Source: Bacteroidota bacterium (GTDB taxonomy: Bacteria; Bacteroidota; Bacteroidia; Bacteroidales; FEN-979). Taken from it: a stretch of DNA of 44,321 nucleotides. Position 1 is the first letter of the stretch, and every line of letters begins with the position of its first letter. The translations under genes were made by a program, and so were the position numbers. This document shows, piece by piece, positions 6,186 through 31,935 of this stretch. The notes beneath the pieces were generated by a model, which saw only the letters and a program-made list of their open reading frames with translations, did no database searches and was not told the origin of the DNA. The stretch is from contig JAPLDN010000273.1 of assembly GCA_026391755.1 (NCBI GenBank), positions 1-44,321 on the forward strand. The letters are read 5' to 3'.

Positions 6186-6234
6186 CATCTGAAATCTGAT
6201 GTCCGATATCTGATGTCGGATGTCAGATACCTGA
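6186..6234. repeat. Heptamer tandem array, about 7 units of TRTCNGA (catctga aatctga tgtccga tatctga tgtcgga tgtcaga tacctga)
   Basis: Read directly from the sequence. It spans the FecR stop to TonB-receptor start junction and contains the likely receptor ATG at 6213. Confidence 0.8.
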
Positions 6235-8789
6235 TTGTGATTCTTTTCCTTCTGGCAGAGTTCAGCCTGAATGCCCAGATCCTTGACAAACCCATCAGCA
6301 TACATATTAAAAACAAGCCCCTTCCCGAGGCCCTTAATGCCATATCCATTGAAGGCAACATCAATTTTTCTTATAATCCTCAAAGCATACCCGCCGATAA
6401 AACCGTAAGTTTAAATTGCCATAAGAAACCTCTGCGCGAGATCCTTGAAGCTATCTTAAAGCCTGTGGGTATCACGTTTTTTGAGCTTGAGGACCAGGTG
6501 GTGCTTAAACCGCCTGCTACCGGCCTCGTTCCACATCATGAAGAGCCTGCAAAAACGCCCCGGCATCTTACCGTCAGCGGTTATATCAGGGAAAAGAACA
6601 GCGGGGAAGCACTCATCGGGGCTAATGTTTACGCAAGCGGGACAAATTACGGCACCAGCACGAACTCGTATGGGTTTTATTCACTTACCCTTCCCGAAGG
6701 AAGCTATGTGCTGGATTATTCCTTCCTTGGCTTCAGGGAGATCAAAGAACCACTGGATTTAAGGTCTGACCAGCGTATAAGCAAAGAGATGGAAGAAGCC
6801 AGGCTTGTCATAAAAGAAGTCGAGGTAAAGCCAAAAGAAACGGGATCCGACATCCGGCGAAGCCAATTAAGCGATTTTAATTTTTCGAATAAAACCCTGG
6901 CCAGCCTGCCGGGGTTTGCCGGTACCCCCGATATCCTGAAAGCCCTTCAGGTTGTGCCAGGCATACGCTCCTACGGGGACGGCTCTTCGTTGTTCTATGT
7001 AAGAGGCGGCAACAGCGACCAGAACCTCTTACTGCTGGACGAAGCACCCATTTACAATCCCTCGCATCTCTTTGGATTTTTTTCGGCCCTCTCCCCCGAT
7101 GCGGTAAACGATATCCAGGTATACAAGGGCGATTTCCCTCCCCGCTTCGGAGGAAGGCTGAGTTCGGTTGTGGATGTGAAAGCCCGGGAAGGGAATATGA
7201 AACGCTTTGGCTTCAGCGGCAACCTGGGGCCTTATGCCTCCAATATTTCCATTGAAGGCCCTATCTGGAAAAATCACGCCTCCTTTTTTATCTCCGGCCG
7301 GCTGTCGACTCTCAACTGGTTGAATTACCTCCTGAACGACCAGCCCGGCTTCAATATCCAATTTTATGATATCAATGCCAAGCTGAACCTCATTGCAAAC
7401 GACAACAACAGGTTCTACCTCACCTTTTATACCGGCCGTGATGACTTTAACCGCATCAATACATCGGCCTACCCCACTTTCGGCATAAGCTGGAACAATA
7501 TCCTGGGAACAGCCCGCTGGAACCATGTCTTCAATAAAAAGCTTTTTTCAAACACAACCCTGAATTACAGCCGTTATAACTATTATCTTTATACAAACAG
7601 CAATCAGGATAATTTCTGGACTTCTTCCATTTCAAACTTCACCCTTAAATCAGATTTTACATGGTTCCTGAACTCCGGCAACACCTTGCGTGCAGGCATG
7701 GATGTGACGAATTACCAATCCAATCCGGGGAACCTTAACAAAGGGGCAGAAAAAAGCAAAACCTCGGCCGGCACCGTGGTACCACTTCCGCTCTGGCAGG
7801 ATTTCGGCTCCACAACCGTATTTGCTTTCGACGCCAATTACCAGCTCATCGATTCGGCGAAGTACAAGCAAAGCATCTGCTATTACACTTATTTCAGCCC
7901 GGAACCGAGGCTAAGCATTATTTACAATATCACCGAACGGACTTCCCTGAAGTTCGGATATTCCAGGAATACCCAGTTTATACAGCAGTTGTCGAACTCC
8001 ACCGGACCCTTTACATCACTGGATGTTTGGGCTCCCTGCGGGCCTAACATCCCTGCCCAGAAAGCCGACCAGTGGGCCCTCGGCTGTTACCAGAAGTTCT
8101 CCCGTGACAGGTTGTTGTTCAGCGCCGAGATCTTTTATAAAGCTTACACCGACCACCTGGACTATAAAGACCATGCCAACCTCTTGTACAATCCTCTTAT
8201 CGAAGGCGAACTCCGCTTCGGCAAAGCCTGGGCATACGGCCTTGAACTCATGCTCAGGAAATCGGAAGGCAGGCTGACTGGATGGATCTCTTACACCTGG
8301 TCCAGGTCGTTGGTACAAACCGATGCAGTCAACAACAGCGAGCCTTATCCCTCGAATTTCGACAGTCCGAACGATGTATGTATTAATGTATCATACGATA
8401 ATCACAGGCACTGGGCTTTTTCGGCCGTCTGGTATTATCATACCGGCAGCCCGGTAACTACACCCACGGGTTTTTATTATAATAACGGCTACTCGGTGCC
8501 TGTTTACGGAGCCAGGAATAACAGCAGGCTGCCCGATTATCACCGCCTCGACCTTTCGGTGACTTACCGCATCAGCAAACCCGAAAAACGTTTTCAGCAA
8601 AACGTAATTTTAACATTATACAATGCTTACGGAAGGTATAACCCGTTTTCTCTGAGTTTTAACCGCATTATGGACAGCAACGGGAATTTCGTGGTGCCCA
8701 CAAATATGCAGGGCGGGTACCAGCTTGTCCCGACCACACTTTCGGTTGCCGGGATCATTCCATCCATCAATTATCAATTTAAATTCTGA
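6213..8789 (+). CDS. TonB-dependent receptor with N-terminal STN signalling domain and carboxypeptidase-regulatory-like domain
   Basis: Signal peptide MSDVRYLIVILFLLAEFSLNAQ starts from the ATG at 6213. The track start at 6153 adds repeat-encoded residues. Domains seen: an STN-like segment (ISIHIKNKPLPEALNAI..), a CarbopepD_reg segment (TVSGYIREKNSGEALIGANVY..), a plug (..FYVRGGNSDQNLLLLDEAPIYNPSHLFGFFS..) and a C-terminal barrel ending ..INYQFKF. Confidence 0.85.
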   Translation: MSDVRYLIVILFLLAEFSLNAQILDKPISIHIKNKPLPEALNAISIEGNINFSYNPQSIPADKTVSLNCHKKPLREILEAILKPVGITFFELEDQVVLKPPATGLVPHHEEPAKTPRHLTVSGYIREKNSGEALIGANVYASGTNYGTSTNSYGFYSLTLPEGSYVLDYSFLGFREIKEPLDLRSDQRISKEMEEARLVIKEVEVKPKETGSDIRRSQLSDFNFSNKTLASLPGFAGTPDILKALQVVPGIRSYGDGSSLFYVRGGNSDQNLLLLDEAPIYNPSHLFGFFSALSPDAVNDIQVYKGDFPPRFGGRLSSVVDVKAREGNMKRFGFSGNLGPYASNISIEGPIWKNHASFFISGRLSTLNWLNYLLNDQPGFNIQFYDINAKLNLIANDNNRFYLTFYTGRDDFNRINTSAYPTFGISWNNILGTARWNHVFNKKLFSNTTLNYSRYNYYLYTNSNQDNFWTSSISNFTLKSDFTWFLNSGNTLRAGMDVTNYQSNPGNLNKGAEKSKTSAGTVVPLPLWQDFGSTTVFAFDANYQLIDSAKYKQSICYYTYFSPEPRLSIIYNITERTSLKFGYSRNTQFIQQLSNSTGPFTSLDVWAPCGPNIPAQKADQWALGCYQKFSRDRLLFSAEIFYKAYTDHLDYKDHANLLYNPLIEGELRFGKAWAYGLELMLRKSEGRLTGWISYTWSRSLVQTDAVNNSEPYPSNFDSPNDVCINVSYDNHRHWAFSAVWYYHTGSPVTTPTGFYYNNGYSVPVYGARNNSRLPDYHRLDLSVTYRISKPEKRFQQNVILTLYNAYGRYNPFSLSFNRIMDSNGNFVVPTNMQGGYQLVPTTLSVAGIIPSINYQFKF

Positions 8790-9610
8790 TGAAAAGGAAA
8801 TTGATAATACTGGTCTTGTGTATACTGATGGCAGCATGCGTCAAACAGACACAATGGAATGTGCCTGGCGTGAACCCAAACCTCATCGCGGTGGAAGGCA
8901 TACTTACTTCAGAGCGAAAGGCTCAGACCATTGTGATCAACCATCCTGTGAACGCCCTGAACGACCCTTCAGTACCTGTAAGCGGTGCAACAGTGCTGAT
9001 CTTCACCGCCGACTCAAACTGGACCCTTACCGAAACACCTGCAGGAAGCGGGAAGTATAAAACCCCTTCAACTTTTATAGCGCTTCTGAATAAGACATAT
9101 ACCCTGAATATCTATAGCGGGAGCTCGGTATATTCGGCCAAGGCATCAATGGTGCCAGGTACGACTTTCTCGCAGCTGACTTATGCGCAAAACGACAAGG
9201 ATACCCTTTACCATATAAATTATGTGGCAAGCGCCTTCAGCAGCACCCAGCCCGCTATGTGGGAAATACTGCTCGACTGGACCAAAGTACCCGGATATGA
9301 GCATGCCGATACAAGCAAATGCAAGGCCAGGATGCTGTTTTACACTCTCCCGACTTTGGATGTGAGCGAGGTCTTTGCCCCGGTGGTGGAGCAGGTCTCA
9401 TTCCCGAGGGGAACCAACATTACACAAAGAAGGTACTCCCTGGCTCCAGCTCATGCGGAATTTGTTCGTGAGATGCTTCTTGAAACCAGCTGGCAGGGGG
9501 GACTCTTCCCTACAGCCGCTGCGAATGTCATGACCAACCTGAGTGCCGGCGCAGTAGGTTTCTTCGGAGTTTGCTCGGTGAATGAGTTGTCGGTGGTTGT
9601 AGGAAAGTAA
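8789..9610 (+). CDS. DUF4249-like lipoprotein (usual partner of this TonB-receptor class)
   Basis: The TGATG overlap with the receptor stop suggests coupling. It has a lipoprotein signal (LCILMAAC) and the pattern ..VEGILTSE..VSGATVLIF..GSGKYKT..YTLNIY typical of DUF4249. Confidence 0.75.
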   Translation: MKRKLIILVLCILMAACVKQTQWNVPGVNPNLIAVEGILTSERKAQTIVINHPVNALNDPSVPVSGATVLIFTADSNWTLTETPAGSGKYKTPSTFIALLNKTYTLNIYSGSSVYSAKASMVPGTTFSQLTYAQNDKDTLYHINYVASAFSSTQPAMWEILLDWTKVPGYEHADTSKCKARMLFYTLPTLDVSEVFAPVVEQVSFPRGTNITQRRYSLAPAHAEFVREMLLETSWQGGLFPTAAANVMTNLSAGAVGFFGVCSVNELSVVVGK

Positions 9611-9625
9611 AGTCGCTCATCTTGA

Positions 9626-9659
9626 TCATAACGCCATAACGAACTTTTTTTCATAACGG
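9626..9659. repeat. Mini-array YCATAACG x2, plus a third copy after a T-run
   Basis: tcataacg ccataacg aacttttttt cataacgg lies in the 117-nt spacer before the lipoprotein gene. It is weak, with only three units. Confidence 0.35.
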
Positions 9660-10552: not shown

Positions 10553-10576
10553 ACTGAATATTACCTGATTCATAAG

Positions 10577-10606: not shown

Positions 10607-10611
10607 ATCCT

Positions 10612-11649: not shown

Positions 11650-12432
11650 TTATAAAATACTTTTCAGAAGATGTGTAAAGTTGATCAGTCCGCTGATCTG
11701 TAATACTGTCAGGATAATCGAAAGGATGATGACCGCCCTGATAAAACCGGCTCCTTTTTTAACTGCAAAATATGAGGCGATGAGAGCCCCTATCACGCTT
11801 CCGGCGCTCAGCAGGAGGCCATACATGTAATGAACCTGTCCGTTGATCACAAAGACGGCCAATGCGAAGATGGCATAAAAAAATACGATGAGATTTTTCA
11901 CCGCATTGGCCTTTACCAGGTCGTAACCCGTTCCCAGGACCAGGGCCATCAGCAGGAAATATCCTACGCCTACCTGGATGAATCCACCGTAAAATCCTAC
12001 GACGAAGAAGATCGCAAACTGCCACCACCTGAGTCTGCGTTGCAGGAGGGCGGGGTTTTCCTTAAGCCAGCGGTCGGGTTTATAGAACAGGAAAAAAGCC
12101 ATCAGTATCATCGCAAGTATCATCGCGATCTCTATTACTTTCCCGTTAACATCAACAGCAAGAACGGCTCCCAATACCGATCCGATTGTTGCAGGGATGC
12201 CAAGCCAGACGGGCCTGAGGTCGGTGAACATTTTTTGTTTGGTGAAGCTGCTCACCGATGAAAGCGTTTGGAAGAAAATGCTGATGCGGTTGGTGCCATT
12301 GGCTATTCCTGCAGGCAATCCAAGGATAACCAGCAGGGAAAGGCTGATCACCGACCCTCCGCCCGAAAGGGTGTTGATGAATCCAACAAAGATTCCGGCG
12401 ACGATAATGACGATGATTTCGGTGAAGGACAT
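11650..12432 (-). CDS. TauE/SafE-family sulfite/anion exporter (DUF81)
   Basis: 260 aa with about 8 TM helices, a two-fold internal repeat, and the G-rich motifs GGGSVISL and GAGFI. Confidence 0.8.
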   Translation of the reverse strand: MSFTEIIVIIVAGIFVGFINTLSGGGSVISLSLLVILGLPAGIANGTNRISIFFQTLSSVSSFTKQKMFTDLRPVWLGIPATIGSVLGAVLAVDVNGKVIEIAMILAMILMAFFLFYKPDRWLKENPALLQRRLRWWQFAIFFVVGFYGGFIQVGVGYFLLMALVLGTGYDLVKANAVKNLIVFFYAIFALAVFVINGQVHYMYGLLLSAGSVIGALIASYFAVKKGAGFIRAVIILSIILTVLQISGLINFTHLLKSIL

Positions 12433-12459: not shown

Positions 12460-12529
12460 TCTTGGCTCTTGGCTCTTGGCTCATGACTCATGGCTCTTGG
12501 CTCTTGGTTTATGGTTTATGGCTCATGGT
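12460..12529. repeat. Heptamer tandem array, 10 units of TCWTGGY (tcttggc x3, tcatgac, tcatggc, tcttggc, tcttggt, ttatggt, ttatggc, tcatggt)
   Basis: Read directly from the sequence. It contains the permease stop codon (12509-12511) and ends 28 nt upstream of the TauE start. Confidence 0.85.
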
Positions 12530-14431
12530 TTCCGGGTGTCTGAGATGGCTGTGTTTACGGGAATACAGGATGTAGATCGTCATCCCTATGAGCAGCCATA
12601 CCAGGAAACGCATCCAGTTGGTAAAGCCGAGGTGGACCATAAGGAAGAGGCTGGAGAGAAGACCCAATAAAGGGATCAGTGAAAGCTTTTTTATAACGGC
12701 CATCAGGGTAAGGACGACAGCCGCCACAATGAAAATGAATAAGGGCAGGTCGTCCCGGTCAAAAGTGAAGTTAAACAGCCTGCCCAGGTCATTCAGTTCA
12801 GGAGGGTTACAGAAGTACAGGACCACAGCAACCCCGGCCCAGACGAGAGGGAGGGCGTAGCGGGAGTTGATGTATGGAACATGGAAGCCTTTGGTGGTGA
12901 CCTCGGATGCCGGATGTCGGATGTCGTATGTCGGATGCGGGATCTGGGATGCGGGATCCGGGATGCGGGATCCGGGATCCGGGATGCGGGATTCGGGATC
13001 TCTTTCATCCTGCATCTTGTATCCTGCATCCGATTCATCCTTTTCATCCCCGGAGTAACGAATAGTGCGGGCAAACTGGCCATCCCGGTCTCTTCTTCCC
13101 CTGGGGTTAAGAATAAGCACTCCTCCGCTGACGAGCACAAATGCAAACAACGTGCCTATACTCGTGAGATCGGTGACTTCGGTGAAGTTAATGAACAGGG
13201 AAGGGATGGCGACAAAGAGCCCTGCAACCACGGTTGCAAAAGCGGGAGTGCGGAATTTAGGGTGTATTTTCGAGAAGGCCTTTGGGAGAAGTCCGTCCCG
13301 GCTCATGCTCATCCAGATGCGGGGCTGGCCTACCTGGAATACCAGGATCACGCTGGCCATGGCGATGATGGCAGCCAGGGAGATAAATCCTGCAAACTTA
13401 CCCATATGAATGCGTTCGAACACATAGGCCAGGGGATCGCCAACACCCAGTTCAGAATAGTTCACCATCCCGGTAAGGACCAGGCTGATCAGTACGTATA
13501 AGATTGTTGTAATGATGAGGGAGTAAATAATAGCCCTTGGCAGGTCCCGCCTTGTATTCCTGCATTCTTCGGCTGTAGTCGAAATGGCGTCGAAGCCGAT
13601 ATAGGCAAAGAAGACGCCCGATACACCTTTGAGCACCCCGGTAAGTCCATGTGGAGAAAAGGGAGTCCAGTTTCCGGGTTTTATGTAAAATGATCCCACC
13701 CCTATAATGAGCAGCAGGACCACTACTTTAAGGATGACCATTGAATTCCCGGCAACCTTGGTTTCATATATCCCCACATAGACCAGCATCGAAATAAGCG
13801 CGACTATTGCAAATGCAGGGATATTGGCGATCAGGTGCACCCCTCCCAGCACTGGGGAATTTACCCAGGCCAGGTAGGATTTCTGGATTACGGGTGCCAG
13901 CTGGGCCAGGCTGCTGCCGTGGGCAATGGCTGCACTTCCGTCAAAATACCCTCTGAGGGCTGTAACGTAATCGGTAGAGATATATTCAGGTATATGGAGC
14001 CCCATCCCGCTCATCAGTCCGCAGAAATAATCAGACCAGGAAATAGCTACCGCGATATTCCCTATGGCATATTCAATGATAAGGTCCCAGCCAATGATCC
14101 AGGCGAACAGCTCGCCGAAGCTCGCATAGGCATAGGTGTATGCGCTGCCGCTCAGCGGGATCACCGATGCAAATTCAGCATAGCATAAAGCTGAAAAACC
14201 GCATGCTATTGCAGTGAAAATAAACAGAAGGGCAACGGCCGGCCCGCCTGATGCCGCCGCGCTGCCGATAGTCGCAAAAATTCCGGAACCTACAATGGCT
14301 GCAATACCTAATGCTGTGAGGTCAAATACCGTGAGACTGCGCCTGAGCCCTCCCGAATCGCGCTCATACCCGGCAGCATCGTTAAGGATCAGTCCTATAG
14401 GTTTCTTTCTGAAAAGGTCGGAAAAAGACAA
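12509..14431 (-). CDS. APC-superfamily amino-acid permease (CAT-like, with an AA_permease_C-type tail) carrying a repeat-encoded hydrophilic insert
   Basis: 640 aa. It has a 12-TM core (..GIAAIVGSGIFATIG.., ..FAYIGFDAISTTAEE..) and a C-terminal TM pair (..TNWMRFLVWLLIGMTIYILYSRKHS). The insert is encoded by the heptamer array at 12904-13050. The last ~7 codons lie in array 12460-12529. Confidence 0.8.
   Translation of the reverse strand: MSFSDLFRKKPIGLILNDAAGYERDSGGLRRSLTVFDLTALGIAAIVGSGIFATIGSAAASGGPAVALLFIFTAIACGFSALCYAEFASVIPLSGSAYTYAYASFGELFAWIIGWDLIIEYAIGNIAVAISWSDYFCGLMSGMGLHIPEYISTDYVTALRGYFDGSAAIAHGSSLAQLAPVIQKSYLAWVNSPVLGGVHLIANIPAFAIVALISMLVYVGIYETKVAGNSMVILKVVVLLLIIGVGSFYIKPGNWTPFSPHGLTGVLKGVSGVFFAYIGFDAISTTAEECRNTRRDLPRAIIYSLIITTILYVLISLVLTGMVNYSELGVGDPLAYVFERIHMGKFAGFISLAAIIAMASVILVFQVGQPRIWMSMSRDGLLPKAFSKIHPKFRTPAFATVVAGLFVAIPSLFINFTEVTDLTSIGTLFAFVLVSGGVLILNPRGRRDRDGQFARTIRYSGDEKDESDAGYKMQDERDPESRIPDPGSRIPDPASQIPHPTYDIRHPASEVTTKGFHVPYINSRYALPLVWAGVAVVLYFCNPPELNDLGRLFNFTFDRDDLPLFIFIVAAVVLTLMAVIKKLSLIPLLGLLSSLFLMVHLGFTNWMRFLVWLLIGMTIYILYSRKHSHLRHPETMSHKP
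12904..13050. repeat. Heptamer array inside a CDS: 14 forward units SGGATNY (12904-13001) plus about 6 inverted units (CATCCTG-type, 13005-13050)
   Basis: The units read cggatgc cggatgt cggatgt cgtatgt cggatgc gggatct gggatgc gggatcc gggatgc gggatcc gggatcc gggatgc gggattc gggatct, then tcatcctgcatcttgtatcctgcatccgattcatcc. Nine GGG tracts with 4-nt spacers lie at 12939-12997. Confidence 0.9.
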
Positions 14432-20094: not shown

Positions 20095-20110
20095 ATTTGT
20101 TTTGTTATTT

Positions 20111-20183: not shown

Positions 20184-20189
20184 ATAATA

Positions 20190-21410: not shown

Positions 21411-21449
21411 TTGTAGGTTTTATAATCATTAATACCCTGAATTCGCAAA

Positions 21450-21563: not shown

Positions 21564-21570
21564 ATCATTT

Positions 21571-22980: not shown

Positions 22981-22983
22981 CCT

Positions 22984-23031
22984 TTATCCAGTTATCCAGT
23001 TATCCAGCTATCCAGCTATCCCGTTATCCCG
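22984..23031. repeat. Octamer tandem array, 6 units of YTATCCMG (ttatccag x3, ctatccag, ctatcccg, ttatcccg)
   Basis: It fills the whole 27-nt sufC-sufD spacer, contains the sufC stop (23008-23010), and ends 3 nt from the sufD ATG. Confidence 0.85.
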
Positions 23032-23778: not shown

Positions 23779-23800
23779 TCTTTTTAAGTTTATTTAACTT

Positions 23801-23868
23801 CTGATAAATGGATAGCTTGATATCTGGATATCCAGTTATCGGCAGCGCACAGCGCTGCCTTATCCAAC
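23801..23868. repeat. Octamer array (NNGATANN x5, palindromic centre GGATATCC) with an embedded perfect GC hairpin
   Basis: The units read ctgataaa tggatagc ttgatatc tggatatc cagttatc. The hairpin GGCAGCGC-aca-GCGCTGCC (23841-23859) directly abuts the sufB stop (23860-23862). Confidence 0.75.
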
Positions 23869-25308
23869 ACTCCCCTCCAGACTTATCGACAACAACTTCT
23901 GAGCTTCCACTGCAAACTCCATGGGAAGCTGCTTCAGCACTTCTTTGGCATAACCGTTTACGATAAGGCCAATAGCGCTTTCGGCATCCATTCCCCTTTG
24001 CTGACAATAAAAAAGCTGGTCCTCGCTGATCTTTGAAGTTGTGGCTTCATGCTCAACGATACTCGATTTATTTTCAACCTGGATATACGGCCAGGTATGC
24101 GCCCCGCAGGCCGAACCCAGCAGCAGGGAATCGCATTGACTGTAATTCCTCGAATTGGCGGCATTCCTGGAGATCCTCACCAGTCCGCGGTATGAGTTAT
24201 TGCTTTTCCCTGCTGATATCCCTTTGGAGATGATCGTGCTTTTCGTATTCTTGCCAAGGTGCAGCATCTTGGTCCCGGTATCGGCCTGCTGGTGGTTGTT
24301 CGTCACTGCAACAGAATAAAACTCTCCTACGCTGTTATCTCCTAGAAGTATACAGGAAGGGTATTTCCATGTGATCGCCGACCCGGTCTCAACCTGGGTC
24401 CATGATATCTTTGAATTGCTGCCTTTACAGATCCCGCGCTTGGTCACAAAATTATAAATCCCGCCTTTCCCACTCTTATCTCCCGGGTACCAGTTCTGGA
24501 CAGTGGAATATTTGACGCTTGCGTCTTTCATGGCCACGATTTCAACAACCGCGGCATGAAGCTGGTTCTCATCCCGCTGGGGAGCCGTGCAGCCTTCCAT
24601 ATAGCTGACATAAGCGCCCTCGTCTGCAACGATGAGGGTACGTTCGAACTGCCCGGTGTTTGCTGCATTGATCCTGAAATAAGTGGACAGCTCAACCGGG
24701 CAGCGAACACCTTTTGGGATATAACAAAACGAGCCGTCGCTGAAAACAGCCGAATTCAAAGAAGCATAATAATTATCAGTATATGGCACGACCGAACCCA
24801 GGTACTGCTTTACAAGATCAGGGTGATTTTGTATCGCTTCGCTCATCGAGCAAAAGATGATCCCGTATTTTGAAAGGGTTTCCGAAAAAGTGGTCTTCAC
24901 CGAAACACTGTCGATTACCGCATCAACGGCCACACCGGCCAGCTTTTTCTGCTCTTCCAGCGAGATCCCGAGTTTGTCGAAAGTTGCCAGTAACTCAGGA
25001 TCCACCTGGTCAAGACTCTCGTATTGTTTCTTCTTCTTGGGCGCAGCGTAAAAATAAATGTCCTGGAAATCTATGGGAGGAATGTCTAGATGAGCCCATT
25101 CAGGTACTTTCATGGTAAGCCAGTGCCTGAAGGCCTTCAAACGGTATTCAAGCATGAATTCAGGCTCGTTCTTTTTTAAGGAAATGTAACGAACCGTATC
25201 CTCGCTCAATCCAATGGGAGCATATTCAGTCTCTATCTCGGTCACAAAGCCGTATTTGTAGTCGCTTTGTGTAACCTCGTTTATGATATTATCAGGATCG
25301 GATTCCAT
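23860..25308 (-). CDS. sufB: Fe-S cluster assembly scaffold SufB
   Basis: The 482 aa starting at [26 protein letters not shown] match a canonical SufB N-terminus. The track ORF (to 25575) adds 89 residues that run through the promoter region and a heptamer array, and I reject that extension. Confidence 0.93.
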
Positions 25309-25369
25309 AATGACCAATTGTCCCTGCAAAGATAAATCATTTAGGTATTCGAGTACCTGTTTGGTAACG

Positions 25370-25400
25370 CAAATTTTTTCTATCCGGGGATCTGAAACAA
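25370..25400 (-). promoter_or_regulatory. Candidate Bacteroidota sigma-A promoter for sufB (-33 TTTG / -7 AAAATTTG)
   Basis: On the minus strand, TTTG (25397-25400) is followed after 19 nt by aaaatttg (25370-25377). This resembles the TTTG-N19-TAnnTTTG consensus and lies about 60 nt upstream of the ATG. It rests on the motif match only. Confidence 0.3.
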
Positions 25401-25488
25401 AAGTAGGAAAAAATCGTATGCCGATGCCGTTCCAAACAAGAATCGACATGCCGGCTGAGCGGGATTCATGCATTTTAACCTGAGCAGT

Positions 25489-25544
<56 letters not shown>

Positions 25545-25580
25545 TAACATTCTTTATATTTACCTGATAATTCAAACTTT

Positions 25581-26801
25581 ATGGCAAACGAAGACTTCCG
25601 GATTTACAGGTACCGATGGGTAATCCTGGTATTGTTTATGTGCGTTGTGGCTGTAAACCAGTTGCTTTGGATCACATTTGCACCAATTACATGCAGTGCT
25701 GCAAAATTTTACATGGTCTCCGATCTCTGGATCGGGTTATTGTCCATGGTTTTCATGTTCGTATATATTTTCGTTTCCATCCCTGCTTCCTGGGTAATTG
25801 ATACATACGGAATTCGTGTTGCGGTAGGGATAGGAGCAGTATTAACAGGGGTTTTCGGACTGATCCGTGGCATTATGGCCGACAATTTCACATGGGTGTT
25901 CATTGCACAAACCGGGATTGCCTTTGGCCAGCCATTTCTGTTGAATGCTATGACCACTATTGCCGCACGCTGGTTCCCGATAAGGGAGCGTGCAATGGCC
26001 TCCGGTTTGGGCTCCCTTGCAATGTACCTGGGTATTGTCATCGGTATGGTGCTAACCCCTCATATGGTGATCCGCAGCGGTATGGATGGGATGCTGGTCA
26101 ATTACGGGATCATCTCAATAGCAGCGGCGGTGTTATTCCTTGTCCTTGCCCGGGAACGGCCACCCACACCTGCCTGTCAGCCGGGCCAGGAAGAACGCTC
26201 CCTGGTATTTGAAGGACTTAAAACCATGCTCCGTAATAAGAATTATATCCTGCTTCTTATCATTTTCTTTTTTGGCCTCGGGGTGTTCAATGCCGTTGCC
26301 ACCTGGATCGAAGAGATCGTGAGGCCAAGAGGGTTCACGATTACCCAGGCCGGAATGGCCGGGGGATTAATGATCTTCGGAGGCCTGGCCGGCGCAGTGG
26401 TTATTTCATGGCTTTCCGATCATTACCGCAGGAGGGTTCCATTTATCCTGCTGGCCTTATCCGCCTCCTGCCTGGGGCTGCTCGGTATCACCTTTGCCAC
26501 AACCTATTCCCTGCTGTTGTTTTCCTCTTTCGTCATAGGATTTTTTCTTCTGAGCGCCGGCCCTGTAGGATTCCAGTATGGGGCAGAAATTGCCTATCCC
26601 GCACCGGAGGGTACTTCAAACTGGTTGCTGCTTCTCATGGGACAGATCTCCGGGATCATTTTCATTTTTGGAATGGATGCGCTCAAAGCAGCAGGTAACG
26701 GGTCAATGACCACATCATTGCTCATACTTACCGGTTTGCTGCTGATTTCCTGCCTGATCGCGGTAAGGCTGAAGGAATCGTCTATGCTTACGAAACCATG
26801 A
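25581..26801 (+). CDS. MFS transporter
   Basis: 406 aa with 12 predicted TM helices and an MFS loop 2-3 motif-like segment (..DTYGIRVAV..). Confidence 0.85.
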   Translation: MANEDFRIYRYRWVILVLFMCVVAVNQLLWITFAPITCSAAKFYMVSDLWIGLLSMVFMFVYIFVSIPASWVIDTYGIRVAVGIGAVLTGVFGLIRGIMADNFTWVFIAQTGIAFGQPFLLNAMTTIAARWFPIRERAMASGLGSLAMYLGIVIGMVLTPHMVIRSGMDGMLVNYGIISIAAAVLFLVLARERPPTPACQPGQEERSLVFEGLKTMLRNKNYILLLIIFFFGLGVFNAVATWIEEIVRPRGFTITQAGMAGGLMIFGGLAGAVVISWLSDHYRRRVPFILLALSASCLGLLGITFATTYSLLLFSSFVIGFFLLSAGPVGFQYGAEIAYPAPEGTSNWLLLLMGQISGIIFIFGMDALKAAGNGSMTTSLLILTGLLLISCLIAVRLKESSMLTKP

Positions 26802-26836
26802 TGGCCTCATGTATACGCAACGTCGCTGCGCCTTAT

Positions 26837-26934
26837 CGCTCGCAATCTTGCACCGCGGCATCCGCTCGCAATCTTGCACCGCGGCTGGGGTTTGCTTCGC
26901 TGCACCCAAGGCCGCTTGTGCAAATTGCTTCGCT
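26837..26934. repeat. REP-like hairpin element, copy 2, with a tandemly duplicated 5-prime arm
   Basis: The 23-nt sequence cgctcgcaatcttgcaccgcggc occurs at 26837-26859 and again at 26863-26885. The second copy continues into the full hairpin homologous to 20111-20183. Confidence 0.8.
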
Positions 26935-26940
26935 TTTTTT
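26863..26940 (+). terminator. Probable intrinsic terminator of the MFS gene (long REP-type hairpin plus T7)
   Basis: The hairpin arms are GCAATCTTGCACCGCGGCTGGGGT and ACCCAAGGCCGCTTGTGCAAATTGC. They are followed by cttcgc and then TTTTTTT (26934-26940). Confidence 0.5.
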
Positions 26941-26973
26941 ATTTAACTTTGCAACTTCTTGAAAAAGACCCCT

Positions 26974-28050
26974 ATGCCAGATCAACAAAACAACGACTCC
27001 TCATTTAAACTCACGCCGCTTTCGGAAATCGGCGAATTCGGACTGATCGACCGGCTTACGAGTGGTATCAGACTTTACCACAAAGAGACGATAAAAGGTG
27101 TTGGTGATGATGCAGCTGTGATTGATGTAGGTGATAAGGTCATACTGCTTTCAACCGACCTCCTGGTCGAAGGGGTCCACTTCGACATGATGTACACTCC
27201 CCTCAGGCACCTGGGTTATAAATCGGCCGTAGTGAACATTTCAGATATTGCAGCAATGAACGGAATACCCAAACAGCTGACCGTTTCTGTTGCCGCATCC
27301 AGCCGGTTTTCGCTTGAAGCCCTCGAAGAGCTTTACGAAGGCATCAAACTTGCCTGCGACCGCTATAAGGTGGATCTCGTGGGAGGCGATACATCATCCG
27401 GCAACAAAGGCCTTATGATCTCGGTGACCATTCTGGGTGAAGCGAAGAAAGATGAGGTGATCTATCGCAGCGGGGCCAGACCCAACGACCTGCTTTGTGT
27501 GAGCGGGGACCTCGGGAGCGCATATATGGGCCTGCTGTTGCTTGAACGGGAAAAGGCCGTTTTCAAAGCCAATCCGAATATGCAACCCGAACTTGACGGT
27601 TTCGACTACCAGGTTGGCCGTCAGCTCAAACCCGAAGCCCGGACCGATATCCGCGAAACACTGGAAAAACTGGGCGTCAAACCTACTTCTATGATCGACA
27701 TATCCGACGGGCTGGCCTCCGAATCACTCCATCTCTGCAAACAATCGGGAACGGGTTGCAGGATATTCGAAGAGAAGATCCCTATCAATCCCCAGACCCG
27801 GGAACTGGCTATGGAATTCAAACTCATCCCTTCGGTGGCTGCACTTTCGGGAGGCGAGGATTACGAACTGCTCTTTACTATTGACCAGAAGGACTATGAA
27901 AAGATAAAGGACGCTGAGGATATCACCATTATCGGCCATATGACCGATGCTTCTGAAGGCAAGGCCATGGTGACTCCCGACAACAAGCAGGTGGAACTCA
28001 CGGCTCAGGGATGGGACAGCATGAAAATTGAAAAGACAGGGTCATTCTAA
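26974..28050 (+). CDS. thiL: Thiamine-monophosphate kinase
   Basis: It has an AIR-synthase-like N-terminal domain (..GVGDDAAVI..LLSTDLLVEGVHF..) and the motif GGDTS. The ATG at 26974 is preferred over the TTG at 26959. Confidence 0.85.
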   Translation: MPDQQNNDSSFKLTPLSEIGEFGLIDRLTSGIRLYHKETIKGVGDDAAVIDVGDKVILLSTDLLVEGVHFDMMYTPLRHLGYKSAVVNISDIAAMNGIPKQLTVSVAASSRFSLEALEELYEGIKLACDRYKVDLVGGDTSSGNKGLMISVTILGEAKKDEVIYRSGARPNDLLCVSGDLGSAYMGLLLLEREKAVFKANPNMQPELDGFDYQVGRQLKPEARTDIRETLEKLGVKPTSMIDISDGLASESLHLCKQSGTGCRIFEEKIPINPQTRELAMEFKLIPSVAALSGGEDYELLFTIDQKDYEKIKDAEDITIIGHMTDASEGKAMVTPDNKQVELTAQGWDSMKIEKTGSF

Positions 28051-28160
28051 CCTGTAAGCAAAATATAAAGAATTGCTTAGGATTTCACTAATTTTGGTGA
28101 CTGCGGATGTCGTTTTGCAATAATTGAAACAATTCCCGTTTATTGTTAAACCGGAAATTC

Positions 28161-28583
28161 ATGAACAGAAAAGATTTCTTTAAAGTTACAGCAGGGGTGA
28201 TTGCCGGGGTTGCAGTCGGAGGCAGTTTCCTTGAAAGTTGTAAAAAAAGCACTACCGGCCCGCAGGGCCCCGACGTGAATTTTACCATTGACCTGAATGA
28301 CTCAAAATATTCTGCACTATCCTCCTCAGGCGGATACGTGTACGTTCAAGGGGTGATCATTGCCCGGATTAATGATTTTGCCGACGGGTATATTGCCGTG
28401 GCCCAAACCTGCACCCACCAGGGTTGCACGGTTACGTATGCAAGAGGATCCCAAACTTTTGTTTGCCCATGCCACGGAGGCACTTACGATCTGAACGGAA
28501 ATGTTACTGCCGGTCCCCCGCCTTATGCCATCAAACGTTACACTGTTTCAAGAAACGGGAGTAACCTCAGCGTTTCAGGCTGA
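28161..28583 (+). CDS. Rieske [2Fe-2S] domain protein, exported (Tat-like signal plus lipobox)
   Basis: It has the signal MNRKDFFKVTAGVIAG..ESC and the Rieske motifs CTHQGC and CPCHGG. The ATG at 28161 is preferred over the TTG at 28143. Confidence 0.8.
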   Translation: MNRKDFFKVTAGVIAGVAVGGSFLESCKKSTTGPQGPDVNFTIDLNDSKYSALSSSGGYVYVQGVIIARINDFADGYIAVAQTCTHQGCTVTYARGSQTFVCPCHGGTYDLNGNVTAGPPPYAIKRYTVSRNGSNLSVSG

Positions 28584-28606
28584 GCCTGAATAACATTCTA
28601 TCCCTT

Positions 28607-29137
28607 ATGAATCAGAAAAAAACATTTGGCAAACAAAATACTGCTGACCGGCCTCGCATCAGGCCGGCAAAAGAACCCGTCGACTTCCTGCTGGAAATTG
28701 CGGCATTGATACTGGTAGTGGCCCTGGTAGTAATCACAGCCGTAAAATACGCCGGGCTGCCACAGCAGATCCCAACGCATTTCAATGCTTCCGGCCAACC
28801 CGATGATTACAGCCATAAGAGCATGATATGGTTCCTGACGGGCATTGCCTTTGTTATATTCACAGGTCTGAGCGTCCTCAACCGTTTTCCGTACATCTTC
28901 AATTTCCCTGTAAACATTACAACTGAGAACGCCGAACGCTTATACCGGCATGCAACCAGGAGCTTGAGGCTGATCAACCTGCTGACGACCATTATGTTTT
29001 TTTACCTTACCTGGCAATCCATTGCCGTGGCGACGGGAAAAGCCGCCGGCCTGGGAATCTGGTTTCTGCCTGTCACAGTTGGTGCCATTTTCCTGGTTAC
29101 AATATACATGGTGATCAGGATGTACCAACTTAAATAA
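28607..29137 (+). CDS. DUF1648-type membrane protein
   Basis: 176 aa with 4 TM helices and the signature ..LPQQIPTHFNASGQPDDYSHKS... Confidence 0.7.
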   Translation: MNQKKTFGKQNTADRPRIRPAKEPVDFLLEIAALILVVALVVITAVKYAGLPQQIPTHFNASGQPDDYSHKSMIWFLTGIAFVIFTGLSVLNRFPYIFNFPVNITTENAERLYRHATRSLRLINLLTTIMFFYLTWQSIAVATGKAAGLGIWFLPVTVGAIFLVTIYMVIRMYQLK

Positions 29138-29138
29138 A

Positions 29139-30956
29139 GTGAGCGCACTGAATAAATATTTCTCGCAGCTCGAACCCATCATCAGATCGCTTCCGGATAA
29201 ACCGGGAGTATACCAGTATTTCGACGAGAAAAACCGTATCATTTACGTCGGAAAAGCGAAGAACCTGAAAAAAAGGGTCAGCTCATACTTCGTTAAGATC
29301 AATTCGATCAGCGGCAAGGTGCAGATGCTGGTCAGGAAGATTGCCGATATCAAATACATAGTGGTCGCGACAGAACAGGATGCGCTTCTCCTCGAAAACA
29401 ACCTGATCAAGAAATATCGTCCCCATTATAATGTCAGCCTTAAGGATGATAAGACATTCCCGTGGATTTGCATTAAGAACGAGCCATTCCCAAGGGTTTT
29501 CAGCACCCGCACAGTGATCCGCGACGGATCCCTGTACTTCGGGCCATATGCTAATGTCAGGCTCATGCATACTCTGCTGGACCTTACCCGCCAGCTATAC
29601 CCTATCCGAAACTGCAATCTGAAGCTTACCGAAAAAAATATTGAAACCGGGAAGTTCAAGGTTTGCCTGGAGTATCATATCGGAAATTGCAAAGGCCCGT
29701 GCGAGAACAGGCAGAGCGGCTTCGATTACGACCAGAGCATTGCTGCTATTAAAGATATCATTAAAGGGAATATCTCATCGGTCGCCCGCCAGCTTCGGGT
29801 TCTTATGATGCAATATGCTTCTGAGCTTGAGTTCGAGAAGGCCCATATCGTGAAGGAAAAACTTGAACTGCTCGACAAATACCAGAGTAAATCAACGATT
29901 GTGAATCCTTCGATCAATGATGTGGACGTGTTTTCTATTATTGCCGACGGGCTCACAGCTTATGTAAACTATCTGAAGGTCATGAACGGTGCTATCATAC
30001 AGGTTCACACAATAGAATTGCAGAAGAAACTGGATGAAACGCCTGAAGAACTCCTGACCATTGCCATTACGGATATCAGGCAAAGGTTTGAAAGCAATTC
30101 CCCGGAGATCATTTTGCCATTTATGCCCGATTTCGCGATGCCCGGGATCTCGTATACAATCCCTAAGATTGGCGATAAACGTAAGCTGCTCGACCTCTCG
30201 GAAAGAAATGTGAAGTATTACCAGCTTGAAAAAGAAAAGCAGAAAGACCTGGTCGATCCCGAACATAAAAGCAAAAGGATACTGGATACCATGATGAAAG
30301 ATCTCAGGATGCCCGAACTTCCCGTGCACATTGAGTGTTTTGACAATTCCAATATCCAGGGCAGCTTTCCCGTTGCGGCCATGGTCTGCTTTAAAAACGC
30401 CAGGCCCGATAAAAACGAATACAGGCATTTTAATATTAAAACCGTGGAAGGGCCTGATGATTTTGCATCGATGGAAGAGATCATTTACAGGCGTTATAAA
30501 AGGCTGCTGGAAGAAGAAAAACCATTGCCCCAGCTGATTATCGTCGACGGGGGAAAAGGACAACTTAGTTCTGCAATTGGAAGCCTCGAAAAATTGGGGC
30601 TCAAAGGGAAGATCACCATTATTGGTATTGCTAAAAAACTCGAAGAGATCTATTATCCCAACGATCCCCTTCCTATGTACCTCGACAAAAAATCAGAGAC
30701 CCTGAGGGTGATACAGCAACTCCGTGATGAAGCCCATCGTTTTGGCATCACACACCACCGCCGTCGAAGAGAGAAGGCCACCATGGCTCCCCAGCTGATG
30801 GAGATCGATGGTATCGGTTTTACTCTGAACCAGAAACTTCTGTGGAAATTCAAATCGGTGAAAAACATCCGTGCTGCTTCACTTGAAGACTTGCAGGAAA
30901 CGATTGGGAAAGCGAAGGGGAAAGTGGTATGGGAATATTTCCAGAATAAGGAGTGA
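29139..30956 (+). CDS. uvrC: Excinuclease ABC subunit C
   Basis: 605 aa with a GIY-YIG N-terminus (PGVYQYFD..IIYVGKAKNLKKRV), a UVR domain, an endonuclease V-like domain and a C-terminal (HhH)2. It has a GTG start. Confidence 0.95.
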   Translation: MSALNKYFSQLEPIIRSLPDKPGVYQYFDEKNRIIYVGKAKNLKKRVSSYFVKINSISGKVQMLVRKIADIKYIVVATEQDALLLENNLIKKYRPHYNVSLKDDKTFPWICIKNEPFPRVFSTRTVIRDGSLYFGPYANVRLMHTLLDLTRQLYPIRNCNLKLTEKNIETGKFKVCLEYHIGNCKGPCENRQSGFDYDQSIAAIKDIIKGNISSVARQLRVLMMQYASELEFEKAHIVKEKLELLDKYQSKSTIVNPSINDVDVFSIIADGLTAYVNYLKVMNGAIIQVHTIELQKKLDETPEELLTIAITDIRQRFESNSPEIILPFMPDFAMPGISYTIPKIGDKRKLLDLSERNVKYYQLEKEKQKDLVDPEHKSKRILDTMMKDLRMPELPVHIECFDNSNIQGSFPVAAMVCFKNARPDKNEYRHFNIKTVEGPDDFASMEEIIYRRYKRLLEEEKPLPQLIIVDGGKGQLSSAIGSLEKLGLKGKITIIGIAKKLEEIYYPNDPLPMYLDKKSETLRVIQQLRDEAHRFGITHHRRRREKATMAPQLMEIDGIGFTLNQKLLWKFKSVKNIRAASLEDLQETIGKAKGKVVWEYFQNKE

Positions 30957-31003
30957 TGGCGGATGGCAGATATCTGATATCTGATATCTGATATCAGATC
31001 ATT
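30955..31003. repeat. Heptamer tandem array, 7 units of GATRKCN (gatggcg gatggca gatatct x3 gatatca gatcatt)
   Basis: It occupies the whole gap between convergent uvrC and the VanZ gene. Both stop codons (30954-30956 and 30999-31001) touch or lie in the array. There are four GATATC palindromes. Confidence 0.85.
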
Positions 31004-31391
31004 CCTGCCCCAGGAACTCATGCGCCCACAAGGCTATAACAGCCACCATAGCCCCGAAGGTATCTGCAAAGAAATCCTTCCAGTCGGCTGTTCTGAGAGG
31101 GATGACCCAACCCTGGAGAAGTTCTGTTGCCCCACCGATAAATATACTGATGATAAGAGCCCAGATCATTGCATAAGCTCCTACAATACCGGGATTCCCG
31201 GGTTTAAGGAACCCTTTTATCAGTAAGAAAGAAAAAACCATGAATATGAACAGGTGAACAATCTTGTCGGGATGCAGCCTGTCGATCCACATCGGCACCC
31301 TGGGAATAGCATTCCCGGGCATAAGCGTAAGAATCAGGATGAAAAAACCCCAGACTATGCTCCAGCGGTTATTTCTCAGGAAAATGGTCAC
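30999..31391 (-). CDS. VanZ-family membrane protein
   Basis: 130 aa with 4 TM helices, and VanZ-like motifs (..DKIVHLFIFMVF.., ..RTADWKDFFADTFG..). Confidence 0.75.
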   Translation of the reverse strand: MTIFLRNNRWSIVWGFFILILTLMPGNAIPRVPMWIDRLHPDKIVHLFIFMVFSFLLIKGFLKPGNPGIVGAYAMIWALIISIFIGGATELLQGWVIPLRTADWKDFFADTFGAMVAVIALWAHEFLGQE

Positions 31392-31406
31392 GAAAATGTC
31401 AGATGT

Positions 31407-31787
31407 TTACCCCTGAATCTGGGCCTGGTATTGCTCGGGGCTCAGCAGTTCAGCAATTTCATCACTATTGGTGATCTTGATTTTTACAACCCAGCCTTCC
31501 GTATAAGGATCTTTGTTGATAAGCTCAGGTGTGGTTGTAAGTGCCTCATTAAATTCAAGAACTTCCCCTCCGACAGGCATAAACATATCCGATACTGTTT
31601 TCACGGCTTCAATAGTGCCGAATGCTTCATGCTTTTCAAGTATTTCGCCAACGGTTTCAACTTCCATAAACACGATATCTCCAAGTTCATGCTGGGCGAA
31701 GTCTGTAATCCCGATAAAAGCATCTTCTCCATCAATTTTCAGCCATTCATGGTCCTTTGTGAACTTTAAGTTAGCAGGAACGTTCAT
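31407..31787 (-). CDS. gcvH: Glycine cleavage system protein H
   Basis: 126 aa with the N-terminus LKFTKDHEWL and the lipoyl-lysine context IEAVKTVSD. Confidence 0.93.
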   Translation of the reverse strand: MNVPANLKFTKDHEWLKIDGEDAFIGITDFAQHELGDIVFMEVETVGEILEKHEAFGTIEAVKTVSDMFMPVGGEVLEFNEALTTTPELINKDPYTEGWVVKIKITNSDEIAELLSPEQYQAQIQG

Positions 31788-31810
31788 AGTATTCAGATTT
31801 TAAGTTTTTT

Positions 31811-31818
31811 CAAAATTA
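31811..31818 (-). promoter_or_regulatory. Candidate -7 box TAATTTTG for gcvH
   Basis: Minus-strand taattttg is a perfect match to the Bacteroidota TAnnTTTG motif and lies 24 nt upstream of the gcvH ATG. The upstream TTTG is at a non-ideal spacing. Confidence 0.35.
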
Positions 31819-31880
31819 CAATTTTTCTTCCTTCAAAGGCCGGCCTGTCAATAAATTATTGTTACCTGGTTAACAATCCC

Positions 31881-31935
31881 GAATCCAGTTATCTAGTTAT
31901 CCAGTTATCTAGTTATCCAGTTATCCCGTATCCCG
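31881..31935. repeat. Octamer-to-heptamer tandem array (gaatccag ttatctag ttatccag ttatctag ttatccag ttatcccg tatcccg)
   Basis: It starts 2 nt downstream of the stop of the sprA C-terminal ORF (31938-31940) and lies about 95 nt upstream of gcvH. Confidence 0.85.

Follow-up and report, generated by a model that had tools for sequence, protein, structure and literature searches.

Heptanucleotide tandem-repeat arrays with unit replacement at fixed junctions in an uncultured Bacteroidales genome: a new case of a known repeat class

Background

What builds short tandem arrays of 7- and 8-nt units between the genes of a bacterium, and what keeps them there? The question is raised by a contig of 44,321 nt from an uncultured Bacteroidales genome (GCA_026391755.1, contig JAPLDN010000273.1; hereafter the window), in which nine such arrays had been noted around genes for a TonB-dependent receptor, an amino-acid permease, the suf operon, uvrC and SprA. 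Heptanucleotide tandem repeats, first reported in cyanobacteria, are among the most abundant and least understood repeats of bacteria. The present arrays are a new case of this known class. We hold it somewhat better than an even chance that they are heptanucleotide microsatellite families, of the type of the short tandemly repeated repetitive sequences (STRR) and long simple sequence repeats (long SSR), which are driven by slippage, seed one another and are filtered only by tolerance. The novelty is modest: it concerns the lineage (uncultured Bacteroidales related to a metagenome-assembled genome (MAG) from Lake Pavin), the presence of several unrelated unit families and of 8-nt variants in one genome, the observed replacement of units at fixed junctions, the quantitative evidence for genome-specific unit families, and a 21-unit array translated within a transporter. 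Closely related syntenic genomes, in which the arrays of a given junction are homologous, enlarged, exchanged or missing, make this locus a natural experiment.

Existence and period of the arrays

Tandem Repeats Finder (TRF) returned arrays of period 7 or 8 at all nine sites listed in the initial annotation, and the units are legible in the sequence itself (Table 1). Eleven TRF rows with period 7 or 8 and at least 3 copies were obtained in the window, whereas 100 dinucleotide-preserving shuffles averaged 0.11 and never exceeded 2; the excess over shuffled sequence is about 100-fold. A stringent lag-autocorrelation scan of the window gave 5 loci at lag 7, 2 loci at lag 8 and 1 segment at lag 4, and no signal at lags 5, 6 and 9-12. 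The weakest and most degenerate arrays are those at 6186 and 23801.

The window units (ATCNGAT, GAGCCAW, CNGGATR, TCGTAAA and CTGGATAA) stand head to tail, contiguous and without spacers. CRISPR loci combine repeats of roughly 24-48 nt with unique spacers of about equal length, usually close to cas genes; here the units measure 7-8 nt and are contiguous, and Pfam scans of 20 of the larger open reading frames (ORFs) of the window contained no Cas domain, the remaining ORFs being unscanned. The earlier description of one recurring, non-CRISPR architecture is therefore retained. So is the kinship proposed between the 7-nt and 8-nt GGAT families, which is supported by period switches inside arrays and by homologous arrays of a relative (L090; L labels designate fetched comparison loci) that mix TTATCCAG and TTATCCCG. 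The GGAT/ATCC core itself, proposed for most arrays, is present in 5 to 7 of the 9 window arrays but is not common to the arrays of relatives at the matching junctions.

The same preference for seven appears beyond the window. Over the window and 84 fetched loci (with a few duplicates), we counted 94 arrays of period 7 and 15 of period 8, together with 4 of period 6, 12 of period 9 and 34 of period 12.

The same junctions in relatives and strains

Syntenic loci were available from the Lake Pavin MAG GCA_026391735.1 (L001 and L090; permease 91% identical), from a widespread species with seven strain assemblies, L003 among them (86%), from L005 and L092 (about 81%) and from L091. Relatives whose permeases are 81-91% identical, where measured, have arrays at the same junctions as the window. 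In the nearest relative these are homologous and differ in size, and in more distant relatives they consist of unrelated units or are missing. At the 3' end of SprA, the 8-mer array has 7 copies in the window versus 19.8 in L090, and L091 carries ACCATTTC x6.9. Between uvrC and vanZ, about 6 units in the window correspond to about 10 homologous units in L090 (x4.4 plus x5.3), to the unrelated CCCAGTCA x4.6 in L091, and to no array in L092, where a much shorter spacer leaves a junction stretch of 33 nt.

Replacement is clearest around the suf operon, every internal junction of which carries an array in the window. The sufB-sufC spacer holds a GATA-type array in the window, TATCAGA in L001, AGCGAAA x14-16 in the L003 species, inverted ACTGGGT in L005 and ACCCAGTC in L091. 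Upstream of sufB, L090 has GGATACA x5.7 followed by inverted TCCTGCT x14.4, L091 has GGATRCA and ATTTCACC, and L092 has none. At sufC-sufD, the array is homologous in L001 (GGGATAAC x8.9), reduced to a degenerate seed in L003 and made of ACTGGGT in L005; the GGATAA-type seed of this junction is expanded only in the window and L001. Between the permease and tauE, the GAGCCAW array of the window has a homologue in L003 (TGAGCCA), and AAATCGT and GCAGGAT stand in its place in L001 and L005, respectively. Remnants of AAATCG(T/A) lie upstream of tauE in 4 of 4 genomes, with expansion in L001 alone. In L092, three junctions are free of arrays (uvrC-vanZ, gcvH-sprA and the one upstream of sufB), although arrays are present elsewhere.

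Turnover, which is fast, can also be followed within one species. The seven assemblies of the L003 species are 98.8-99.97% identical over 8 kb. In the five assemblies that span the long homogeneous AGCGAAA x14-16 array, the number of units varies (L003 has two fewer), as does the succession of unit variants; the short degenerate arrays are identical in all seven apart from one single-nucleotide polymorphism. Long homogeneous arrays vary and degenerate ones are fixed, which is the life cycle expected of a microsatellite.

Location, orientation and structure

Among 97 arrays, 64 lie fully outside coding sequences (CDS) and 20 straddle a boundary, with CDS calls covering 88.5% of the DNA (P = 1e-36); this is an enrichment outside genes of about 6-fold. 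By density, 3' ends are not specially favoured. In array-rich loci, the density per kb of spacer is 1.48 for convergent, 1.51 for co-directional and 1.22 for divergent spacers: location is set by tolerance and not by the type of spacer.

Within the window, the gene names given previously proved correct, and the description of arrays as sitting on gene boundaries applies to 7 of the 9, each of them either intergenic or at the 3' end of a housekeeping gene; the array at 12904-13050 falls inside the permease gene and that at 6186-6234 probably inside the receptor gene. Contacts with stop codons are as described for sufC and the permease (stops inside the arrays) and for uvrC, vanZ and the SprA C-terminal ORF (stops abutting). 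The contact with the sufB stop is looser, the array being 20 nt away behind a hairpin. Of the two reported contacts with start codons, that of sufD stands (3 nt), and that of the TonB-dependent receptor is replaced by a probable location within its N-terminal coding region.

Orientation relative to transcription is mixed, except for AAATCGT-type arrays, 6 of 7 of which run in the sense direction, and lends no support to a strand-specific role. Stop codons are present in the sense strand of 27 of 48 units and in the antisense strand of 16 of 48, counts that we consider uninterpretable because ORF-based gene calls end where the array supplies a stop.

Predicted folding covers a wide range (z from about -8 to +2.4). 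Hairpins form where units are palindromic (ATCNGAT) or where half-arrays are inverted (z from -3 to -8), as in the sufD-sufS spacer of L001, with a near-perfect stem of about 26 bp (z = -8.3), and in the sufB-sufC spacer of L005 (z = -3.7). Roughly every second array is a simple direct repeat without excess structure (z from -0.6 to +2.4), so that hairpins were rejected as a general rule. The sufB-sufC spacer of L003 has an inverted TTTCGCT partner, yet the fold of the whole spacer is insignificant (z = -0.5). None of the 8 terminator-like sites found in 20000-32200 overlaps an array, and their count is below the shuffle mean. A sigma-70 promoter scan detected nothing at the arrays, with counts at or below shuffle, under a promoter model that does not fit Bacteroidota. 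No match to Rfam 15 reached the gathering score in the window. Taken together, these tests of function point to no single cis-acting function shared by the arrays.

Unit families and their spread

When arrays from different junctions are compared in pairs, their units are identical in 14.4% of pairs within a genome, versus 1.1% between unrelated genomes and 0.12% for random heptamers. Allowing one mismatch, the proportions are 19.5%, 3.9% and 2.5%. The arrays are therefore not independent accidents; their units act as genome-specific families. As an example, the AAATCGT family of the sufD-sufS array recurs at other junctions in L001, L008, L009 and L028. Two simple sources of such families were rejected. 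Amplification of words common in the genome does not account for them, since the unit words are unenriched outside arrays (observed/expected 0.6-1.6; 502 GGAT observed versus 496 expected, with CAGGAT and CGGGAT enriched about 1.5-fold). An element resembling a miniature inverted-repeat transposable element is unlikely, loci with a common unit having, on inspection, no common flanking sequence.

A scan of genome collections, based on 80 permease-anchored orthologous loci from named species, located arrays in the clade of the window, in other Bacteroidales MAGs (L009, L010, L017, L018, L026 and L028) and in two loci of Pyrinomonadaceae. Syntenic relatives have 2-3 arrays per 10 kb, and most permease-anchored loci of Prolixibacteraceae, Chitinophagaceae and Sphingobacteriales have none. 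The two Pyrinomonadaceae loci (L076 and L079, MAGs of Acidobacteriota) have AGTGACA/CTTGTCA, TTGGTCT and other period-7 arrays around the permease homologue; TTGGTCT is one mismatch from the cyanobacterial STRR unit TTGGTCA.

Searching viral contigs for GGAT at 7-nt spacing gave more than 120 contigs among the matches listed. Two of them stand out: L098 (IMGVR_UViG_3300009494_000037), with 15 period-7 arrays in 14 kb, mostly TAATCCT, and L122 (IMGVR_UViG_3300043295_000206), with 10 period-7 arrays in 12 kb, of a CAGTGAT/TTACTGA type resembling the published TAACTGA. These IMG/VR contigs have their own unit families, and period-7 arrays therefore extend to putative viral or mobile DNA. A metagenome scan with four YTATCCMG units (CKGGATAR on the other strand) likewise gave more than 120 contigs among the matches listed (L213-L332), with a G+C content of 0.39-0.65 and arrays of up to about 77 copies. 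Of the 149 arrays in these matches, 24 reach the end of a locus, a hint that such arrays may break short-read assemblies.

Arrays translated inside genes

The array at 12904-13050 comprises 21 heptamer units, i.e. 147 nt or 49 codons, and is translated as residues 461-509 of the permease (...DPESRIPDPGSRIPDPASQIPHP...). It consists of two inverted half-arrays, CAGGATG-type and then ATCCCGS-type in gene sense. The Pfam domain AA_permease_2 covers residues 33-444 and AA_permease_C covers residues 585-628, the frame being unbroken past the array. In homologues of 70-91% identity, the loop is hypervariable in length and sequence exactly there; several of them have a 7-residue periodicity of their own in this loop or in the C-terminal tail, and L001 and L005 also have arrays within intact permease genes. 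No secondary structure is predicted for residues 441-516 in an AlphaFold model, whose mean predicted local distance difference test score of 43, from a shallow alignment, is too poor for the model to serve as proof of disorder.

The array at 6186-6234 is probably translated as well, as the n-region of the signal peptide of the TonB-dependent receptor (...KSDVRYLMSDVRYL...), because the ATG at 6153 is conserved, the reading frame runs without a stop across the array and into the signal peptide in the window, L001, L003 and L005, and the array region differs in length between the window and L001 by exactly 21 nt, or 3 units. Both in-gene arrays are of the degenerate type, are intact in all relatives examined and belong to genes for envelope proteins. 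By rewriting gene ends, arrays yield C-terminal tails, start codons and, in the transporter, a 49-residue insert. They also yield spurious ORFs, and annotators of Bacteroidales MAGs should expect such repeats.

Origin of the arrays

The following life cycle is proposed for these microsatellite families. An array would be born from a local or imported seed of one or two units, of which the seeds and remnants at sufC-sufD and upstream of tauE give the pattern, and would grow or shrink through slipped-strand mispairing during replication. The 7-nt register preference may be a property of the replication or repair machinery of the lineage, in line with a proposal by Mrazek. Long homogeneous arrays are the hypermutable stage, as the strains above show, and point mutation turns others degenerate and stable. 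Because the same units occur at unlinked junctions of one genome, arrays would also seed one another, most simply via ectopic template switching or gene conversion. Selection acts as a filter on location alone: arrays persist in any type of spacer, over the first or last few codons of genes and in protein segments that tolerate them, such as the loop of the permease and, probably, the signal-peptide n-region of the receptor, where their unit number is a multiple of three. Hairpins in RNA or DNA from palindromic or inverted units, new stops and starts, C-terminal tails and 7-residue peptide repeats would then be by-products, among which we would count the 49-residue permease insert.

Several points weigh against this scheme. 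Slippage alone does not explain the 7-nt preference and the patchiness among related lineages, nor the identical units at unlinked loci and, at about ten times chance, in unrelated genomes. A few junctions, notably those of the suf operon, are occupied in 4-5 related genomes with unrelated units, and such repeated use could reflect selection for a spacer or a structure rather than mere tolerance. Several sufB-sufC spacers retain a hairpin despite different sequence, and 6 of 7 AAATCGT-type arrays run in the sense direction. Finally, the copy-number differences come from short-read metagenome assemblies, which can mis-size repeats.

A function of the arrays in the transcript is the least improbable of the alternatives, and still an unlikely one. 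The arrays would be cis-acting RNA elements of operons and 5' untranslated regions (UTRs), offering tandem sites to a single-strand RNA-binding protein with about 7 nt per monomer, whose occupancy would adjust how translation starts or how stable the mRNA is in a phylum without Shine-Dalgarno pairing. Candidate binders are a cold-shock-domain protein (CSP), ribosomal protein S1 and, for CAGGATG-type units, a CsrA-like protein; CsrB-type CsrA sites have the consensus CAGGAUG, which such units may imitate. Such a role fits the arrays at all suf-operon junctions, one of them 3 nt ahead of the sufD start, the 16 of 90 start-side boundaries that lie within 10 nt of an array, the sense orientation of the AAATCGT type in 6 of 7 cases, the recurrence of unit families within a genome and the lack of structure of direct arrays, as an S1 or CSP landing pad would require; the same idea has been put forward for the TAACTGA repeats of Beggiatoaceae (MacGregor 2015, PMC4679880). 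Yet the units of one junction are wholly different between relatives with 81-91% identical permeases, most families occur in both orientations, with GGAT units flipping between genomes upstream of sufB, and convergent spacers, which have no 5' UTR, are equally dense in arrays. Some arrays moreover lie in coding sequence, and L092 does without them upstream of sufB, at uvrC-vanZ and at gcvH-sprA. Transcript structure could matter instead of a bound protein: in a role like that of repetitive extragenic palindromic (REP) elements, palindromic or inverted-half arrays would form stem-loops in the transcript or DNA cruciforms, at 3' ends or in intercistronic positions, and would thereby shield upstream mRNA from exonucleases, dampen read-through or differentiate expression within operons; slippage would build and resize the hairpins. 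We regard this as quite improbable. Strong hairpins are indeed predicted at the fecR/receptor (z = -4.5), sufB-sufC (-5.1) and uvrC-vanZ (-3.1) junctions, and in the L001 sufD-sufS and L005 sufB-sufC spacers (-8.3 and -3.7); that of sufB-sufC is kept in the window and L005 despite different units, and paired inverted heptamer repeats have been noted in Xanthomonas too (PMC4692102). About half of the arrays, however, are plain direct repeats (z from -0.6 to +2.4), T-tracts and terminator-like sites are missing at the arrays, hairpin-forming arrays also occur in coding sequence, and 3' ends are not favoured by density. No palindromic unit is conserved across loci, unlike in REP families; with folding confined to some arrays and no shared palindromic consensus, the arrays differ from REP elements and bacterial interspersed mosaic elements, in which one conserved imperfect palindrome of 20-40 nt recurs at many extragenic sites, no genome-wide search for REP-associated tyrosine transposases having been made.

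Patchiness and shared units could also have a cause outside the arrays. Intermediate in probability between the two transcript roles, and thus unlikely too, is a dedicated, transferable trans-acting system that copies genome-specific units into new spacers as a "copy-paste" microsatellite. It would be common to scattered Bacteroidales, Acidobacteriota, cyanobacteria, Beggiatoaceae and their mobile elements, with a nucleic-acid-binding factor or a polymerase or repair factor reading the 7-nt register as candidates, and would let the arrays act inside operons as spacers or hairpins that can be tuned. Compatible with it are the surplus of identical units, both at unlinked loci and between unrelated genomes, the very patchy distribution and the IMG/VR contigs saturated with their own unit families. 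Very unlikely are double-stranded DNA sites every 7-8 bp for a GGAT regulator, a nucleoid protein or a DnaA-like titration. GGAT/ATCC occurs in 5-7 of the 9 window arrays, duplex binding is independent of orientation and would fit the mixed orientations, and YTATCCMG recurs, among the matches listed, in over 120 metagenome contigs that differ in G+C; the TTATCCAG unit (22984-23031 and 31881-31935) even equals 7 of 9 positions of the DnaA box TTATCCACA, presumably by coincidence, and the differing positions are important for DnaA binding. However, the GAGCCAA and TCGTAAA arrays of the window and the arrays of relatives at the same junctions have no GGAT, this word is unenriched outside arrays in spite of the 1.5-fold excess of CAGGAT and CGGGAT, a 7-bp spacing puts consecutive sites on different faces of the helix, and array copy number varies freely. 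The protein binding GGAT at 7-bp spacing that the initial annotation had envisaged is thus disfavoured, the units of relatives being unrelated and the orientation of GGAT unconserved. About as unlikely are contingency loci, typically repeats in the 5' coding region or promoter of a surface or restriction-modification gene, in which gain or loss of units shifts frames or promoter spacing and switches genes on and off: units are not multiples of three, a one-unit change in either of the two in-frame arrays (TonB-dependent receptor and permease) would cause a frameshift, and the long array is polymorphic between strains, but most arrays stand between housekeeping genes (suf operon, uvrC, gcvH), where there is no frame to change, and both in-gene arrays are of the degenerate, stable kind and intact in all relatives examined. 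The chance that assembly or sequencing artefacts are at work is negligible. Short-read assemblers do mis-size repeats, and 24 of the 149 metagenomic 8-mer arrays listed touch a locus end; against this, the same junctions are occupied in independent NCBI, ENA and JGI assemblies, some of which are long-read MAGs (L026 and L028) judging by contig names, the seven strain assemblies agree base for base on degenerate arrays, and in-frame arrays leave long ORFs and the downstream Pfam domains intact.

Comparison with known repeats

Cyanobacterial STRR are few heptamers which are tandemly repeated at many dispersed, mostly non-coding loci, and are restricted to lineages; classical units are CCCCAGT, TTGGTCA and CAACAGT. 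The arrays of the window resemble them in the limited set of heptamers, the many dispersed and mainly non-coding loci and the restriction to lineages, and the earlier choice of STRR as the analogue was a fair one. They differ in that no window unit equals one of these three STRR heptamers and in that the hosts are uncultured Bacteroidales, not heterocystous cyanobacteria. Among relatives, ACTGGGT of L005 is one mismatch from the complement of CCCCAGT. Five features of STRR and long-SSR families were found in the window and the fetched loci: contiguous 7-nt units, dispersal above chance, mostly non-coding location, re-use of units and variation among relatives.

The Xanthomonas GGGAATC and Nostoc/Anabaena GGGGAYT heptamers are about 90% intergenic (Rehm 2015, PMC4692102). 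As here, they form tandem 7-nt units, mostly intergenic and near ORF ends, with paired inverted copies and with junctions kept across related species at highly variable length and sequence. Unlike Xanthomonas and Nostoc, which have one dominant, G-rich and quadruplex-forming unit, the present genomes have several unrelated and mostly non-G-rich units each, 8-nt variants and in-frame translated arrays, and belong to another phylum.

Contrary to the initial annotation, which knew of no equivalent in Bacteroidota, TAACTGA tandem heptamers have been described in Beggiatoaceae, cyanobacteria and five Bacteroidetes genomes (MacGregor 2015, PMC4679880). In Gramella and Aequorivita, the repeat-bearing spacers contain other heptamer repeats too, and close relatives with the same neighbourhood lack them (PMC4679880). 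Common to both cases are intergenic tandem heptamers with a patchy distribution across phyla, long arrays in some Bacteroidetes (Gramella and Aequorivita), occasional copies within ORFs and no excess of singleton units. In contrast, TAACTGA in 'Maribeggiatoa' is one dominant unit, mostly forward, directly upstream of starts and in 2-6 copies, whereas here many units occur in 4-21 copies without consistent orientation or position.

The survey by Mrazek, Guo and Shah (2007, PMC1895974), as summarised in later papers, ranks heptanucleotides first in abundance among long SSR (5-11 nt) and proposes polymerase slippage as the cause. Our arrays agree with these summaries in that heptamers are commonest, phylogenetically scattered and, as units that are not multiples of three, excluded from genes. 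The survey is older than the present MAG lineages, and genome-specific unit families and turnover at orthologous junctions are absent from the summaries. Borg tandem repeats are reported to show a similarly rapid evolution and independent origin, with in-gene copies that create new, probably disordered protein segments, comparable to the permease loop (Schoelmerich 2023, PMC9879509); unlike the present arrays, these repeats belong to extrachromosomal elements of archaea and hardly occur in the host genome.

Gene map and other features of the window

The gene layout was obtained from Pfam scans and from the annotations of relatives (Table 1).

Table 1. Arrays and genes of the window, with predicted fold scores of arrays or their spacers where calculated
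Feature	Position	Strand	Source and context	Fold z
ATCNGAT array, about 7 units, near-palindromic	6186-6234	+	starts 24 nt past the fecR stop; RNA hairpin	-4.5
GAGCCAA/GAGCCAT array (gene sense), about 10 units	12460-12529	-	TRF; holds the permease stop (12509-12511) and encodes the final permease residues; stops 27 nt short of the tauE start (12432); unstructured	-0.6
21-unit heptamer array	12904-13050	-	TRF; in the permease gene (see text)	-2.7
TCGTAAA x4 (gene sense)	21450-21477	-	TRF; within the sufD-sufS spacer of 160 nt, where related words in inverted orientation (ATTTACGAATGACG) lie upstream	
8-mer CTGGATAA/CGGGATAR x6 (gene sense)	22984-23031	-	TRF; encodes the last 7 SufC residues (RDNGIAG) and holds the sufC stop (23008-23010); terminates 3 nt ahead of the sufD start codon (22980)	
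Degenerate palindromic GGATA-type array	23801-23840	-	TRF, weak, score 34; 20 nt from the sufB stop, hairpin GGCAGCGCTGTGCGCTGCC in between; both occupy most of the sufB-sufC spacer	-5.1 (spacer)
G+C-rich hairpin GGCAGCGCTGTGCGCTGCC	23841-23859	-	directly after the sufB stop	
YATCCYG x8 (+ strand)	25489-25544		TRF; divergent spacer between the sufB start (25308, minus strand, placed by aligning relatives) and the MFS start (25581); unstructured	-0.4
GATGGCR x2, then palindromic GATATCT x4	30955-31003		TRF, genes from Pfam; fills the 42-nt spacer of convergent uvrC (stop 30954-30956) and vanZ (stop 30999-31001); hairpin without terminator-like T-run	-3.1
TTATCYAG x5, then TTATCCCG and TATCCCG (+ strand)	31881-31935	-	TRF, 16-nt higher-order period at 100% match; directly 3' of the SprA C-terminal ORF stop (31938-31940), in the spacer upstream of gcvH	
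fecR	5098-6162	+	Pfam; stop 6160-6162	
TonB-dependent receptor	6153-8789	+	Pfam; ATG overlaps the fecR stop	
Asparaginase gene, then tauE	tauE 11650-12432	tauE -	Pfam/relatives	
Cationic amino-acid transporter (CAT)-type permease	12509-14431	-	Pfam/relatives	
dxs	between permease and suf operon		Pfam/relatives	
sufS, sufD, sufC, sufB	20190-25308	-	Pfam/relatives	
Major facilitator superfamily (MFS) transporter	25581-26801	+		
uvrC, then vanZ and gcvH	uvrC 29139-30956	uvrC +; vanZ, gcvH -		
SprA	31938-39018	-		

The hairpin GGCAGCGCTGTGCGCTGCC behind sufB is not composed of heptamers. Part of it is conserved in L001, and it may represent an RNA structure between cistrons of the suf operon. A 19-nt direct repeat of about 2.2 copies (5065-5104, TRF consensus ATCAGGGTAAACAAGTG) lies in the spacer between the gene of an extracytoplasmic function (ECF) sigma factor and fecR and is unrelated to the heptamer arrays.

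SprA is split in the window into two ORFs in different frames (33103-39018 and 31938-33098), with the junction near 33098-33105, where no repeat is evident. The 386-residue C-terminal ORF matches SprA residues 2018-2401 of PDB 6H3I (E = 3.6e-63), and SprA of relatives is one ORF of 2402-2424 residues. The split reflects either a sequencing error or a true frameshift, which would make the gene a pseudogene.

At 15535-15592, the window has a 58-nt overlap between two convergent genes, dxs and DUF7670. In L001, the ends of the two genes are bridged by a 14-unit ATCTGMC array (8741-8845), which is present neither in the window nor in L003 and L005.

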